A DNA stretch of 64,000 bases. It comes from Escherichia coli (GTDB lineage: Bacteria > Pseudomonadota > Gammaproteobacteria > Enterobacterales > Enterobacteriaceae). Within the stretch, counting starts at the first letter, position 1, and each line of letters opens with the position of its first letter. Where the stretch lies: assembly GCF_011045215.1 (NCBI RefSeq), contig NZ_CP049201.1; one strand, 5' to 3'. This document shows, piece by piece, positions 4,714 to 62,084 of this stretch. The translations under genes and the position numbers were made by a program. The notes under the pieces were generated by a model. That model made no database searches and was not told the DNA's origin. It saw nothing but the letters and a program-made list of their open reading frames with translations.

Positions 4714-5279
4714 TATGTATTCCCTTGTGATTATAATCTTCATGAATATATCAATAAGTGCCGTTATCCAAAAAAAAAGCACATTTGGATACTATTCTAT
4801 GAAGTTCATTTTATTTTAAAGATTACATGTAACAAATGTATTTAAAAGATTTCAAAATGCTTCTAATCTATTTAATATAATTCAGAATTATGAATTCTAA
4901 ATATAAACATTCATGAAAATTATAAATGTATATCAATATATTATGAGTTGAATGGAAAGATAGGGAGTATCAATGATTGTTGCGCCAAACGGCAGGCGTG
5001 ATCACGCGCACATTAATGAAGGTATAAAAAAAGCCGGCATCATGCCGGCCCAAAAAATATAAACAAGACGATAAAAGGCTAATAACGGGGTTATCATGAC
5101 ACAGAAATCAAAAAAGGTATAATTGTATTCAGTGCTAATATATTGTTTGGGTGAATTAATAAAACTATTACCAAGGATATAAATAAATCTTTATTGCTGT
5201 TTTTCCAGTAATTATTGCCGTTGCGCAAAATTTATCTATTTGTTCAAAAAATGATTGAGTCTCGACTGGCTCATCCAAT

Positions 5280-13440: not shown

Positions 13441-13527
13441 AACACATCAGATTTCCTGGTGTAACGAATTTTTTAAGTGCTTCTTGCTTAAGCAAGTTTC
13501 ATCCCGCCCCCCTCAGGGTCGGGATTT
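13441..13527 (+). ncRNA. dsrA: DsrA small regulatory RNA (Hfq-dependent; rpoS activator / hns repressor)
   Basis: Sequence AACACATCAGATTTCCTGGTGTAACGAATTTTTTAAGTGCTTCTTGCTTAAGCAAGTTTC... matches DsrA as I recall it; ends in GC-rich hairpin plus T-run; lies between yedP and yodD. Confidence 0.85.
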
Positions 13528-26877: not shown

Positions 26878-27429
26878 ATGAAAAAACTTATCGTTTCAAG
26901 TGTATTGGCATTCATAACATTTTCTGCGCAGGCCGCAGCATTTCAGGTCACTAGTAATGAAATAAAAACAGGAGAGCAACTTACAACGTCTCATGTATTT
27001 TCTGGATTTGGGTGTGAGGGGGGTAATACATCGCCCTCATTAACCTGGTCTGGTGCTCCAGAAGGCACCAAAAGCTTTGCCGTAACTGTGTATGATCCAG
27101 ATGCGCCTACAGGCAGCGGATGGTGGCACTGGACTGTTGCTAATATTCCAGCAACGGTAACATATTTGCCCGCTGATGCAGGAAGACGTGATGGTACAAA
27201 ACTTCCGACTGGTGCTGTCCAAGGCCGAAATGATTTTGGCTATGCGGGATTTGGTGGAGCATGTCCTCCCAAAGGAGATAAACCCCATCATTACCAGTTT
27301 AAAATATGGGCTCTAAAAACTGATAAGATTCCTGTGGATTCTAATTCCAGCGGAGCGTTAGTTGGTTATATGCTTAATGCCAATAAAATTGCAACCGCTG
27401 AGATAATACCCGTTTATGAGGTAAAGTAG
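26878..27429 (+). CDS. Periplasmic PEBP/YbhB-YbcL family protein (YbcL-like)
   Basis: 183 aa with signal peptide; PEBP-like motifs (DPDAP, HYQF); in K-12 the homolog sits in DLP12 next to emrE. Confidence 0.8.
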   Translation: MKKLIVSSVLAFITFSAQAAAFQVTSNEIKTGEQLTTSHVFSGFGCEGGNTSPSLTWSGAPEGTKSFAVTVYDPDAPTGSGWWHWTVANIPATVTYLPADAGRRDGTKLPTGAVQGRNDFGYAGFGGACPPKGDKPHHYQFKIWALKTDKIPVDSNSSGALVGYMLNANKIATAEIIPVYEVK

Positions 27430-27438
27430 GATAAGAGT

Positions 27439-28236
27439 ATGCTGGCAAAAGATAGGACTAACCTAAAGATTGAAGAAATACGGATGCATAAACATCATGA
27501 GATTCACAGGGTTAAGCCTCTTATGCCAGCTTTATGTCGTATCCGTCAGGGAAAAAAAGTTATCAATTGGGAGACGCATAGTCTAACTGTTGATAATAAT
27601 CAGATAATATTATTTCCCTGTGGATATGAATTTTATATTGCGAATTACCCAGAAGCAGGTCTTTATCTTGCAGAAATGCTTTATTATCCCATTGATCTAA
27701 TTGAAAAGTTCCAAAATCTTTATGCGATAACCGATCAAATTCGTAACACGACAGGTTTCTGCTTACCTCAGAATCCCGAGTTAATATATTGTTGGGAGCA
27801 ACTAAAAACATCTATTTCCCGAGGCTTCTCAACGCAAATTCAGGAACACTTAGCAATGGGCGTTCTACTTTCATTAGGAGCACATCATGTTAATTGTTTA
27901 CTTTTATCAGATAGTAAACAATCATTAACAAGTCGTTGTTATAACCTAATGCTATCCGAACCTGGAACAAAATGGACAGCAAACAAGGTAGCGAGATATC
28001 TCTACATTTCTGTTTCCACATTGCATCGCCGTCTGGCAAGCGAGGGAGTAAGTTTTCAAAGTATATTGGACGACGTGAGGTTAAATAATGCGTTGTCTGC
28101 TATACAAACGACAGTAAAACCCATCAGCGAGATTGCCAGGGAAAATGGTTACAAGTGTCCTTCTCGTTTTACTGAAAGGTTCCATAATCGTTTTAAGATA
28201 ACACCAAGAGAGCTAAGAAAAGCGTCCAGAGAGTAA
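27439..28236 (+). CDS. AraC-family transcriptional regulator (YbcM-like)
   Basis: C-terminal AraC-type HTH; true start may be internal ATG at 27484. Confidence 0.78.
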
Positions 28237-29363
28237 AAGTATTTTATGAAGGAGCAACAGCATCGATTTTTATTTTGGAAAATAAATACGGCATACTCAA
28301 CCTATTGGAGCCTGAACAATCCGGTGACTTCTGCGCTAATCGGGGACGTTTATAAGCACATATAATTGATACTATCTTCCTCCATCACAATTTCAGAAAT
28401 GCACGTGTGATTTTTTTGCATCCGGCGTTTGGACTATGTGGAGTTCAAGAGTGGGAAAGTTACAAGAGGTTGAGGGGATAATTAAAGGGATGCTTATGAC
28501 ATTAGATATCCGGATAGGTACGGATATCGTTGTTATTAAATCTAGTTTATACGTTAAGATGCAGCTACAGCAGAAATTGCCACTGTTAATTTTTTCATCG
28601 TGAGCCCTTTTATTTTAACTATTATTTAAAAATGATGTCACTGCACTACAAATATTCATCCAATCAATGAGATTATTTCAAGATGTAAGTTTTAGTTTCT
28701 CATTTAAATTGTGAAGTAGATCCCTATCTTTATCTGAACTGTTTCTATTGCACACAATGCATGACTATTTTGTGAACGAATATAAATTTGGTAGTTAAAT
28801 TATATTAAAGGTTGTTATTTATGATTGACTCATGATTTATTTATTTAATTTAAATAGCCTAGAAATAACCATGGAAATTATTTGCATGATGTTTGTTTAG
28901 ATTTATTAATGTAATTGAGGTGGTTTTATTTAATACGCAATATAGCGCCGCTTGATATTAGTTCTATTTTTTTTGCGTAAGATAGATGAGACAAACTGAG
29001 ACGCATAATGGTTTGCAAGGCTCTAATACTTTGATGTTGAGGATGTGATGGGGCATGTACGGGGCATAGTACAATGATGTCCATGCTGGTGTAGATAATC
29101 TCCAGGCTTATCCGGTGCGCCGTAAAACCCCGTCCTTCAGGGCAGGGATATAAGGCGCGGTTTTCCACCTAACCAGGTGTTTGCTGTTGTTCAATGTATT
29201 GGCGCACCTCCGCAGCTACTGGCAAAATAGCCAGCACTCCACAAAACGCCTTTGTAGTAATACCTGACTGCAATATCTGGTCGATCTCGTCGCAGTAACC
29301 TACCCGATACGCCTTTGAGGCTGTTTACCAGACTGGATATCGCCAGTTTGGGAGGATAGTTAA

Positions 29364-29579
29364 TTAACAAACGTGATCTGGTTCGCCATCCATTTCAACC
29401 AGTTCAGCTTCAAAATCAGCACATACCTTTGAAAAGTAAGTGCGTAGTTTTTCTGTCGCGTCATGGTCAAAAATCTGGCGTCGGTATCTGGTGACAAAGA
29501 CCAGGTGAACATGCATCAGGAAAACACAATGCCTTCCACGCCGGATATCGGTTTCTTTTTTCACAGACCAAAGTATCAT
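29364..29579 (-). pseudogene. tnpA: IS200/IS605 Y1 transposase TnpA fragment (3'-truncated just before the HuH motif)
   Basis: 71 aa: ...HVHLVFVTRYRRQ... ends ...GEPDHVC-stop where HuH (HVHLL) is expected; full TnpA is ~140-150 aa. Confidence 0.65.
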
Positions 29580-29586
29580 TTGGCCT

Positions 29587-30795
29587 GTGAAACGACTACA
29601 GGCATTTAAATTCCAGTTAAGACCCGGTGGTCAACAGGAGCGTGAAATGAGGCGCTTCGCAGGCGCATGTCGTTTCGTTTTCAATCGTGCTCTGGCACGT
29701 CAGAATGAGAATCATGAGGCCGGTAATAAATACATCCCTTACGGGAAAATGGCTTCCTGGCTGGTTGAGTGGAAAAATGCCACTGAAACGCAATGGCTTA
29801 AAGATGCCCCGTCACAGCCATTGCAACAGTCACTGAAAGACCTTGAGCGGGCTTACAAAAACTTCTTCCGGAAGCGGGCTGCTTTTCCCCGATTCAAAAA
29901 GCGGGGACAGAATGATGCATTCCGCTACCCGCAGGGCGTTAAGCTCGATCAGGAAAACAGTCGTATTTTTCTGCCGAAACTTGGCTGGATGCGCTACCGG
30001 AATAGCCGTCAGGTCACGGGTGTTGTGAAAAATGTCACTGTCAGCCAGTCCTGCGGTAAGTGGTACATCAGTATTCAGACTGAAAATGAAGTATCAACTC
30101 CGGTTCACCCTTCAGCATTAATGGTCGGACTGGATGCTGGCGTGGCTAAACTCGCCACGCTGTCAGATGGCACAGTCTTTGGGCCTGTAAACAGTTTTCA
30201 GAAAAACCAGAAGACGCTGGCGAGACTTCAGCGACAGTTAAGCCGCAAGGTCAAATTCAGCAACAACTGGCAGAAGCAGAAACGCAAAATACAGCGACTG
30301 CATTCCTGTATCGCAAATATCCGCAGGGACTACCTTCACAAAGTCACAACGACCGTCAGCAAAAACCACGCAATGATAGTCATTGAGGATTTGAAGGTCA
30401 GCAACATGTCAAAGTCAGCAGCGGGTACGGTCAGCCAGCCGGGGCGCAATGTCCGGGCAAAATCAGGTTTAAACCGTTCGATACTGGATCAGAGCTGGTA
30501 TGAAATGCGCCGCCAGCTTGAGTACAAGCAGCTCTGGCGTGGCGGTCAGGTGCTTGCTGTTCCGCCAGCGTACACAAGCCAGCGTTGCGCGTGCTGTGGT
30601 CATACAGCGAAAGAAAATCGCCTGTCACAAAGTAAATTCAGATGCCAGGCATGTGGATATACAGCGAACGCTGATGTAAATGGCGCTCGTAACATTTTAG
30701 CGGCGGGGCACGCCGTTCTTGCCTGTGGAGAGATGGTGCAGTCAGGCCGCCCGTTGAAGCAGGAACCCACCGAAATGATTCAGGCGACAGCCTGA
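29587..30795 (+). CDS. tnpB: TnpB (OrfB_IS605; RuvC-like RNA-guided endonuclease family)
   Basis: 402 aa; RuvC-I GLDAGV, Ruv[10 protein letters not shown], Zn-ribbon CxxC...CxxC (QRCACCGH...RCQACGY), Ruv[14 protein letters not shown]. Confidence 0.9.
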
Positions 30796-30846
30796 ACGTA
30801 GCAGGGATCCTCGTCCTTCAGAGCGTGGAGGATGTCAACAAACAGG

Positions 30847-31506
30847 TTAAATTAACTCCGCGCCCTGGTTTTTGACATTACCTACCGCGCGCGATACCGG
30901 GTGCCAGGTGAACTGGTTTGCTGGCACACATCCACTGGTAGCAATTTCTGAGGCTTCTTTACCGCCAACCTCTTGCCGCATCCATTCCCGTGCAGCTTCT
31001 GGCGACAGAACCAGCGGGCGGCGGTCATGAATATCTACCAGACCTTGATCTGCCGCCGCAGTGACGATCAAAAATCCTTCGGCTTCGTCACCACGCTCAA
31101 ATGGTGTGCTTCCTATCGCGGCCATAAAAACAGGTTTTCCGTCAGTACGATAGATAAAATAAGGCTGCTTTTTGTCGCCTTCTTTTTTCCACTCAAACCA
31201 GCCATCGGCAAAACAGATTGCCCGACCGTGTTGCCAGAGCGGTTTAAACATGCGACTGGTTGCGGCAGTTTCTACGCGGGCGTTAATCAGCGGCGGTTTA
31301 TCCCACCATCCGGGAGCATATCCCCAGAAAACCGGATCCAGATGAAGGTGTTCATCACGTTCACTGAGCAGAAGAACTTTGGTTCCCGGCGCGACGTTGT
31401 ATCTGCCAATGGGTTCGGGATCGTAGGGAATATCGCGTTCAATATCTTCCGCGAGAAGCGCAAGGTAATCTTCACGCGTTTGGGATTGGGCAAAGCGTCC
31501 ACACAT
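30847..31506 (-). CDS. yedK: SOS-response-associated peptidase (SRAP) YedK, abasic-site processing protein
   Basis: 219 aa starting MCGRFAQ (catalytic Cys2). Confidence 0.9.
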   Translation of the reverse strand: MCGRFAQSQTREDYLALLAEDIERDIPYDPEPIGRYNVAPGTKVLLLSERDEHLHLDPVFWGYAPGWWDKPPLINARVETAATSRMFKPLWQHGRAICFADGWFEWKKEGDKKQPYFIYRTDGKPVFMAAIGSTPFERGDEAEGFLIVTAAADQGLVDIHDRRPLVLSPEAAREWMRQEVGGKEASEIATSGCVPANQFTWHPVSRAVGNVKNQGAELI

Positions 31507-39580: not shown

Positions 39581-39678
<98 letters not shown>

Positions 39679-49527: not shown

Positions 49528-49603
<76 letters not shown>

Positions 49604-49656
49604 GTTTAAAAGGCATCGGCGTCAGCGGATGTCTGGCTGAAAGGCCTGAAGAATTT

Positions 49657-49730
49657 GGCGCGTTAACAAAGCGGTTATGTAGCGGATTGCAAATCCGTCT
49701 AGTCCGGTTCGACTCCGGAACGCGCCTCCA
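49657..49730 (+). tRNA. cysT: tRNA-Cys (anticodon GCA)
   Basis: GGCGCGTTAACAAAGCGG...GATTGCAAATCC...CGCGCCTCCA. Confidence 0.92.
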
Positions 49731-49742
49731 CTTTCTTCCCGA

Positions 49743-49829
49743 GCCCGGATGGTGGAATCGGTAGACACAAGGGATTTAAAATCCCTCGGCGTTCGCGCTG
49801 TGCGGGTTCAAGTCCCGCTCCGGGTACCA
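49743..49829 (+). tRNA. leuZ: tRNA-Leu (anticodon TAA), long variable arm
   Basis: GCCCGGATGGTGGAATCGGTAGACACAAGGGATTTAAAATCCC...CCGGGTACCA. Confidence 0.92.
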
Positions 49830-61484: not shown

Positions 61485-62084
61485 TTATGCTTGTTTACTC
61501 CTTGATTCCACTGGGGAAGCAGGCCACTCAATATCCGGTGCTCTTGATGTATCAACACGGTTCAGCAGCACTCGATACTTCTTCCATGCCACCAGTAACG
61601 ATGTTTCTTCCTCTGTTGCAATATTCAAATCTACGGCATCTTGAAGTGGCGAAATATGCTCACTGGCTACCTGCATGAGGCTGTTTTTTGTTTCTTCCGC
61701 CTCCCGTATCCGGAACACTTTTTCTGCTTCTGCATCTTTCACCCACGTTGTGCCGTTCCACTTCTGAAACTCCCCTTCCGGGGATAACCAGGTGACATTT
61801 TCCGGTAATGGACCGAGTTCAGAAATAAATAACGCGCCCCCTGATGCCACGTCATAAACCGTTTTACCACGATGATCTTCAACGAGATGCCAGGACGTCT
61901 TATCACTGTTGAAAATAGCCACGAAGCCAGCTGGAATATCTGGCGGAGAAATATCAGTACTATTTGCAGGTAGACCTGTATGAGGTGGAATGTATGCATC
62001 ACCTTCACCAATAAATTCATTGGTTCCGACCAGCAGATTATAAATTTTTATGGTTCGTGGTTGTTCACTCATTCTGAATGCCAT
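61485..62084 (-). CDS. Tail fibre assembly protein (P2 gpG/Tfa-like)
   Basis: 199 aa; start overlaps stop of tail fibre gene. Confidence 0.85.

Follow-up and report, generated by a model that had tools for sequence, protein, structure and literature searches.

An IS609 copy inserted on the yedK stop codon of Escherichia coli has a dead tnpA, an intact tnpB and a predicted guide that matches the vacant site

The insertion sequence IS609 of Escherichia coli is readily compared with IS608 of Helicobacter pylori and ISDra2 of Deinococcus radiodurans. All three have a Y1 HuH transposase (TnpA), subterminal hairpins, insertion without target duplication 3' of a tetra- or pentanucleotide, a right end (RE) that finishes in TCAA, and an omega-RNA that overlaps the 3' end of tnpB and the RE. 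The target of IS608 is TTAC and that of ISDra2 is TTGAT, whereas IS609 uses TTAT or TTAC, and tnpA and tnpB are divergent in IS609, unlike in the other two elements. The established mechanism of the TnpB nuclease reportedly goes back to work by Karvelis and by Altae-Tran in 2021. In the IS605 family, TnpB cuts the donor joint, or vacant site, with the result that the element is retained or spread (Meers et al., doi 10.1101/2023.03.14.532601, PMC10690162). RAGATH-18 forms the scaffold core of the guide RNAs of IS607 TnpB proteins (PMC11061315), and the TldRs, nuclease-dead RNA-guided transcription factors derived from TnpB (PMC10705468), resemble the locus studied here in that a TnpB-family protein sits at a fixed chromosomal site without a working transposase and its guide is complementary to a host gene next to it. 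Here we describe an IS609 copy in a stretch of 64,000 nucleotides of E. coli DNA (contig NZ_CP049201.1 of assembly GCF_011045215.1; "the window" below is this whole stretch). Our best explanation, which we consider very likely, is that IS609 arrived by 'peel-and-paste' transposition 3' of the TTAT at the yedK stop codon, that it is now non-autonomous, and that its TnpB and omega-RNA would cut the vacant site.

Plasmid copies retrieved with window positions 28950-30950 as the query matched only between 29108 and 30838. In an alignment of four independent plasmid insertions, from E. coli, Klebsiella, Tatumella and Escherichia albertii, the shared sequence opens with TTAT or TTAC, then CCGGTGCGCCG, and stops at ...GGAGGATGTCAA, beyond which the flanks are unrelated; the window copy reads ...GGATGTCAA at its 3' terminus, the last base being 30838. 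Since these ends equal those of the annotated feature 'insertion sequence:IS609' of K-12 MG1655 (1503161-1504908, 1748 bp), the element is IS609. The K-12 copy likewise extends from TTAT followed by CCGGTGCGCC... to ...GGAGGATGTCAA and contains a tnpA pseudogene (yncK) divergent from a 1209-nt, GTG-start tnpB (insQ); TnpB identity is 97%, and 26 of the 1209 tnpB nucleotides differ. It lies at ydcL/ydcO, whereas the window copy lies at the yedK stop and has two mismatches in the RE hairpin. The window copy is 1727 bp long rather than the full-length 1748 bp because of deletions of 4 and 17 bp. As in the IS200/IS605 family generally, there is no target duplication and the empty alleles are scarless. 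A search of the 64-kb window for a second IS609 end found none. As an E. coli insertion sequence it is well known and already catalogued: RefSeq annotates both genes at the yedK locus, as a tnpA pseudogene and an 'RNA-guided endonuclease InsQ/TnpB family protein', and labels a neighbouring copy 'IS609 family transposase'. An earlier note on this DNA, made from the sequence alone, had recognised an IS200/IS605-family element with an intact TnpB and a dead TnpA, which the domain profiles and mapped lesions bear out. It placed the boundaries at 29364 and 30846, and these are wrong; plasmid copies and empty sites give the limits in Table 1, and the term 'remnant' overstated the decay, both ends being present. 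That note did not have the identification as catalogued IS609, the insertion exactly on the yedK stop codon, or its occurrence there in about 79% of the complete genomes of the species.

The insertion site can be read from natural empty alleles. The empty junction of K-12 joins ...ataatctccaggcTTAT to caaacaggttgaattaactcc..., and in both K-12 and uropathogenic E. coli (UPEC) 536, whose left flank is that of the window, TTAT is followed directly by CAAACAGG. The two junctions therefore identify a scarless insertion on the yedK stop codon. Where the IS is absent, as in K-12, YedK ends ...QPV-TGA, a stop codon whose TG is right-flank sequence and whose A belongs to the complement of TTAT. In most E. 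coli that carry IS609 it ends ...QPVC-TGA, with an additional C-terminal Cys and a stop codon provided by the RE terminus TCAA. The window allele has a CAA-to-TAA change at 30849 (C-to-T on the yedK strand), which it has in common with strain MB06233 and which moves the stop to 30847-30849, four codons sooner. At least 80% of a 2.1-kb query spanning flank, IS and yedK is present in 4310 of 5426 complete E. coli genomes (~79%); 456 genomes have the empty junction with the same flank, and more, K-12-like, are empty with another left flank. The insertion is thus common but polymorphic, which answers the question, raised earlier, of its fixation at this site in related strains. The interval between fliE and yedK holds emrE-ybcL-ybcM in the window (context 26878-28236), DLP12-prophage genes in K-12; UPEC 536 has an additional ompC/nmpC-like porin gene between ybcM and yedK, and K-12 has yedL-yedN-intG. 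Homology between these arrangements restarts only 17 nt before the TTAT target.

Because the RE terminus is 30838, position 30839 is the predicted first base of the guide, which lies antisense to the final codons of yedK and its stop. A guide drawn from the flank overlapping the yedK 3' end had been suggested before, and the RE terminus and the empty sites bear this out. Behind TTAT, the common E. coli guide allele matches the empty alleles of K-12 and UPEC 536 at 20 of 20 positions, and the window guide matches these empty alleles at 19 of 20. TTAT or TTAC lies directly 5' of every independent enterobacterial IS609-type insertion that we examined, and the target site suggests TTAT as the transposon-associated motif (TAM); in Burkholderiales relatives of IS609 (seven loci) its place is taken by TTGAT, the ISDra2-type target. 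We found no second guide target in the 64-kb window; nothing there but the occupied site comes close to TAM plus guide, and at that site TCAA replaces TTAT. Self-cleavage at the occupied site is not expected because TCAA, which is not a TAM, precedes the guide match. By analogy with the established TnpB mechanism, the tnpB transcript would be processed to an omega-RNA with a guide of ~16-20 nt from 30839, TnpB loaded with it would cleave TTAT-flanked vacant sites produced by excision or recombination, and repair of the cut from an occupied copy would lead to retention or homing.

The protein that would do the cutting appears complete. TnpB has the Pfam domains HTH_OrfB_IS605 (PF12323), OrfB_IS605 (PF01385) and Cas12f1-like_TNB (PF07282), scores 385 bits against NCBIfam guided_TnpB (NF040570; cut-off 100) and aligns over residues 3-376 with ISDra2 TnpB (8H1J/8BF8; E=3e-54). 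In that alignment D183, E267 and D363 fall on the ISDra2 catalytic motifs GVDVG, GTEHL and DRDEN, and the zinc-ribbon cysteines C334/C337/C353/C356 make two CxxC pairs. The complete RuvC and zinc-ribbon motifs reported earlier are thus confirmed by the D-E-D triad, the CxxC pairs and the Pfam and NCBIfam profiles, and the catalytic residues, whose disruption would have counted against that claim, are intact. No orthologue or paralogue retrieved has a broken 402-aa open reading frame (ORF), in contrast to tnpA, which has suffered several independent lesions. The ratio of nonsynonymous to synonymous substitution rates (dN/dS) of tnpB is 0.19-0.28 against close copies, on small counts (8 synonymous vs 8 nonsynonymous), and 0.08-0.15 against more distant ones; with synonymous sites making up about 22% of tnpB sites, synonymous changes are over-represented at 8 vs 8. 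The exact window TnpB is WP_164475647.1 (two GenBank accessions, one 5.4-Mb contig), and an exact-protein look-up for its genomic context returned no record; the common TnpB allele is on at least 1000 contigs.

The tnpA gene, by contrast with tnpB, is broken in this copy. A divergent 71-aa ORF (29364-29579, minus strand) ends in ...GEPDHVC, and a 59-aa ORF on the same strand (29191-29370), with the product LINYPPKLAISSLVNSLKGVSGRLLRRDRPDIAVRYYYKGVLWSAGYFASSCGGAPI, encodes the following part of an IS200-type transposase. The NCBIfam profile NF033573 transpos_IS200 (126 positions) is covered by two out-of-frame fragments, at 2-59 and 61-116. One lesion is a 4-bp deletion at about 29370/29371 that removes CCAT from GAT CAC GTC CAT TTG (D-H-V-H-L), and the other is a 17-bp deletion at about 29196/29197, ahead of the helix of the catalytic Tyr (RQYIEQQ); the original stop codon is at 29169-29171. 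On this alignment tnpA reads as a full-length frameshift pseudogene whose frame is broken exactly in the HuH codons. The earlier description of a gene cut at 71 aa was right about the ORF ending in GEPDHVC and the break at the HuH motif and wrong about truncation, since the gene runs on in another frame, an outcome that the earlier note had itself named as one that would refute it. Inspection of three chromosomal IS609 loci (K-12 ydcL/ydcO, ytfA and yedK) found tnpA dead in all, with differing lesions (a TGA stop, the -4 frameshift, the -17 deletion), and a 402-aa tnpB kept at each. The K-12 copy and two copies at the yedK locus have the same TGA stop; the window tnpA lacks the TGA of K-12 and of the other yedK-locus copies compared and has the frameshift of the ytfA copy instead. 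Plasmid copies of IS609 with an intact tnpA are present in E. coli, Klebsiella and Salmonella, and the ORF list of the 64-kb window contains no intact tnpA. Because its own tnpA is dead, any mobility of the window copy would need TnpA in trans.

Both ends of the element are recognisable and slightly decayed. The subterminal hairpin of the left end (LE), at 29128-29147, has one mismatch (GGGCAGGG vs the consensus GGGCGGGG), and two of the nine pairs of the RE hairpin are broken in the window copy (U.U and C.A). LE positions 29128-29148 and RE positions 30809-30829 form a direct repeat that is 81% identical and, as is usual in the family, there are no terminal inverted repeats; the RE cleavage motif TCAA is at 30835-30838. 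The LE and RE palindromes are conserved across insertions and the RE stem covaries, which may reflect a TnpA-bound hairpin in single-stranded DNA (ssDNA) as well as RNA. Folded as ssDNA, the window RE hairpin reaches -3.7 kcal/mol (z +0.4), no better than shuffles, vs -7.7 kcal/mol (z -2.0) for K-12 IS609. A hairpin had been noted here before and does exist; its register is not atcctc/gaggat, covariation favouring the pairing in Table 1. Similarly, the supposed 51-bp right end (30796-30846) is really 43 bp of RE and 8 bp (30839-30846) of former yedK flank. With no self-mobility and with these slightly decayed end hairpins, the window IS609 is an effectively fixed, non-autonomous fossil as a transposon.

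Our prediction of an omega-RNA scaffold rests on comparison with relatives. Scanning one genome per species yielded 80 loci from Enterobacterales to Burkholderiales (TnpB 57-94% identical), most of which end in G[AG]GGA[ATC]G[TC]CAA, and most of which conserve GGAGGATGTCAA at the terminus. For 39 of these loci the final 230 nt were aligned and analysed with RNAalifold, which predicted nine helices (Table 1), and by pair counting. In the 39 loci 96.8% of cells are paired in the proposed structure, vs 36-52% in controls whose partners were shifted by 1-3 columns; compensatory double changes affect 21 of 40 pairs, a level reached in none of 500 shuffles. In the helix 30703-30704/30712-30713, within the coding region, 16 sequences, for instance, have CG in place of GC. 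A single-sequence fold of the region gives z -2.8 to -3.1. The omega-RNA region that had been suspected at the tnpB 3' end and RE is in this way borne out as a predicted structure. One helix, invariant across the 39 IS609-like loci, resembles RAGATH-18: its closing helix and its loop sequences CCUGUGGAG ... CGUUGAAGCAGGAA fit the model consensus at 30722-30765. It differs in that the internal stem has 17 nt in IS609 vs 44, and in that the RAGATH-18-like part of IS609 lies within the tnpB ORF, whereas IS607 guide RNAs (reRNAs) are wholly non-coding.

Table 1. Coordinates of the features discussed, as positions in the window
Feature	Position	Strand	Basis or remark
TTAT target site, predicted TAM	29108-29111	+	directly 5' of the IS609 left end
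IS609 copy (IS200/IS605 family)	29112-30838		both limits set to the base by independent insertions and by the natural vacant alleles of K-12 and UPEC 536
LE	29112-29168	+	alignment of independent insertions, direct repeat with RE hairpin, fold
tnpA pseudogene (Y1 HuH transposase)	29169-29579	-	ORFs, alignment with orthologous and paralogous copies, NCBIfam
Minimum gene-conversion tract, at least 1.38 kb	29297-30672		site-by-site comparison; covers most of tnpB as well as the 4-bp deletion in HuH
tnpB (insQ-type RNA-guided endonuclease), 402 aa, 1209 nt, GTG start	29587-30795	+	intact ORF
Possible extra 5' helix	30669-30685		uncertain: wobble-only variation
Predicted omega-RNA scaffold, ~150 nt	30692-30838	+	last ~104 nt of tnpB and 43-nt RE; covariation
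Predicted scaffold closing helix	30692-30695/30832-30835		RNAalifold
Predicted scaffold helix	30700-30705/30711-30716		RNAalifold
Predicted scaffold helix, RAGATH-18-like	30722-30726/30759-30763		RNAalifold
Predicted scaffold helices	30730-30732/30750-30752 and 30735-30737/30746-30748		RNAalifold
Predicted scaffold helices	30770-30771/30804-30805 and 30775-30777/30797-30799		RNAalifold
RE, non-coding part, 43 bp after the tnpB stop	30796-30838	+	alignment, terminus ...GGAGGATGTCAA
RE hairpin as predicted scaffold helix	30808-30816/30821-30829		RNAalifold
Predicted omega-RNA guide CAAACAGGTTAAATTAACTC	30839-30858	+	first bases past RE; antisense to yedK stop and last codons
yedK (SRAP/SOS-response-associated peptidase), 219 aa	30847-31506	-	

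Several further observations concern relatives of this region. Stretches of ~300 nt or ~140 nt that are homologous, at ~80% identity, to the 3' end of tnpB and the RE recur on many plasmids of Klebsiella and E. coli, where the annotation gives a 'hypothetical protein' or an antitoxin; these stretches may be PATE-like elements or remnants in which an omega-RNA and RE stand alone. In several Burkholderiales relatives the loop of the RE hairpin is expanded by 25-35 nt, and in several the RAGATH-18-like helix contains a further stem of 24 nt. The 2057-bp contig NZ_BMTT01000064.1 ('Streptomyces mutabilis') contains an enterobacterial-type IS609-like tnpB (82% identity) and is probably contamination. 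Elsewhere in the window, matches at the Rfam gathering level lie at 61543-61741 (-), 5026-5115 (-), 13441-13527 (+), 39601-39642 (-) and 49528-49826 (+); their names are IS009 RNA, rseX, DsrA, ES036 (barely over threshold) and three tRNAs.

The history of the window copy is mosaic. Compared with its closest orthologue, in MB06233, it has identical flanks and element ends and 14 'private' tnpB substitutions. With tnpB alone as the query, a match of 99.8% identity came from IS609 copies that lie within a gene of the TetR family, between yjfZ and ytfB (the ytfA locus); in these copies tnpA is frameshifted and tnpB intact. Throughout the tract listed in Table 1 the window has the alleles of the ytfA-locus copy (E. 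coli XH990) at nearly all informative sites, and 29108-29196 and 30811-30858 have yedK-locus alleles (the 17-bp deletion, a G-to-A in LE, a T in RE). To judge from this site-by-site pattern, the interior has been overwritten by gene conversion from the paralogous IS609 at the ytfA locus. Accelerated evolution of tnpB, which the 14 private changes might have suggested, was rejected, 13 of them being alleles of the ytfA-locus paralogue, as gene conversion would produce; a strain-specific origin of the 4-bp HuH deletion was rejected too, the same lesion being present in the ytfA-locus copy. Gene conversion is thus part of what keeps tnpB similar to other copies and, because of the tract, a low dN/dS at one locus is not simply a sign of selection there.

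A number of points weigh against a TnpB and omega-RNA that still guard the yedK site. The low dN/dS could stem from gene conversion by other copies instead of selection at the yedK locus. Since tnpA is dead in this copy and in both of the other chromosomal copies inspected, excision may never happen, which would leave TnpB idle. The guide has its mismatch to the K-12 and UPEC 536 empty alleles at position 11. Among the private TnpB substitutions is G303S, at a residue that is Gly in the seven other copies compared and in ISDra2. The gene starts with GTG, and a promoter scan found no plus-strand sigma-70-like promoter upstream of tnpB or the scaffold; terminator-like matches in the same scan did not exceed about twice the shuffle expectation, and none lay downstream of the guide. 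The IS3-family element IS1203 interrupts tnpB at the yedK locus in O111 strains and in some others, without obvious consequence, and so tnpB is not host-essential. Three of the 40 scaffold pairs are broken in the window copy, two of them in the RE hairpin. The Rfam and covariance check that had been advised gave a divided answer: covariation across the 39 loci is strong, and no Rfam family reaches threshold, the best being RAGATH-18 (RF03064) at 30722-30765 with 25.4 bits (threshold 44.9, E=0.13) and a gathering-mode search returning zero matches near the locus. As to biochemistry, an IS609-type TnpB has been purified and SfaTnpB had the top trans-cleavage activity of the nine orthologs compared in PMC12781874; the section on this comparison gives no separate result for IS609. 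Literature searches on IS609 or insQ plus TnpB found no native E. coli omega-RNA studies.

Many of these points would be explained if tnpB and the omega-RNA were non-functional and the ORF had stayed open through the youth of the insertion or through repair by gene conversion. Such an inert fossil is possible, though we do not favour it. It is consistent with an interior that matches the ytfA-locus copy, with the decay of both end hairpins, with the death of tnpA at all three chromosomal loci, with private nonsynonymous changes such as G303S and with the disruption by IS1203 in O111 lineages. It does not sit well with a tnpB ORF that is intact in all copies retrieved, unlike the multiply damaged tnpA, nor with the excess of synonymous changes, the presence of the common TnpB allele on so many contigs and a scaffold in which 37 of 40 pairs are intact. 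A second alternative, which we find doubtful, is that the copy is still mobile in trans, moved by an intact TnpA encoded elsewhere, for instance on plasmids, with TnpB serving the canonical retention cycle. Plasmid IS609 copies with an intact tnpA do circulate in E. coli, Klebsiella and Salmonella, the window copy has both ends and the TTAT and TCAA cleavage contexts, and the same-flank empty sites of 456 genomes could be precise excisions. Those empty sites may equally be just ancestral, however, the window has no intact tnpA, and two RE mismatches and one LE mismatch set its hairpins apart from functional-looking copies. That a host-domesticated TnpB/omega-RNA, or read-through antisense to yedK, regulates that gene by analogy with TldRs or cis-antisense control is highly improbable and in its TldR-like form was rejected: the guide and any tnpB read-through would be antisense to the yedK 3' end, the insertion is kept in ~79% of genomes and the IS terminus supplies the yedK stop in most strains, but the RuvC triad that TldRs have lost is intact here, both transposon ends are kept, the match at the occupied locus lies behind TCAA without a TAM, yedK is intact in many strains whose site is empty, O111 strains have a disrupted tnpB and IS609 is also found at the unrelated loci ydcL/ydcO and ytfA.

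We retain the interpretation of the yedK copy as a non-autonomous IS609 whose TnpB and omega-RNA would cut the vacant site. A bolder form of it, which we think rather unlikely, is that the TnpA-less copies at yedK, ydcL/ydcO and ytfA, whose TnpB and omega-RNA are intact and constrained, persist as autonomous allele-drive or addiction modules, in which TnpB would cut empty alleles that come in from outside or through recombination, or would home once an occupied allele has entered a strain with a vacant site. Perfectly matching empty alleles with a flanking TAM are polymorphic in natural populations and, if this form were true, allele drive would account for the ~79% occupancy without any transposition. 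The value for annotation is small: IS609, InsQ/TnpB and the way in which TnpB works with its omega-RNA are already established, and both genes carry RefSeq labels in thousands of genomes. The locus is nevertheless a clean natural example in which the ends, the predicted TAM, the guide and a matching vacant allele can all be read from population data, and strains with an occupied or an empty yedK site provide the native host and components for the retention or homing model. The locus further illustrates that the stop codon of a host gene can come from an IS, and that fossil IS copies swap sequence by gene conversion, which complicates the inference of selection on tnpB.

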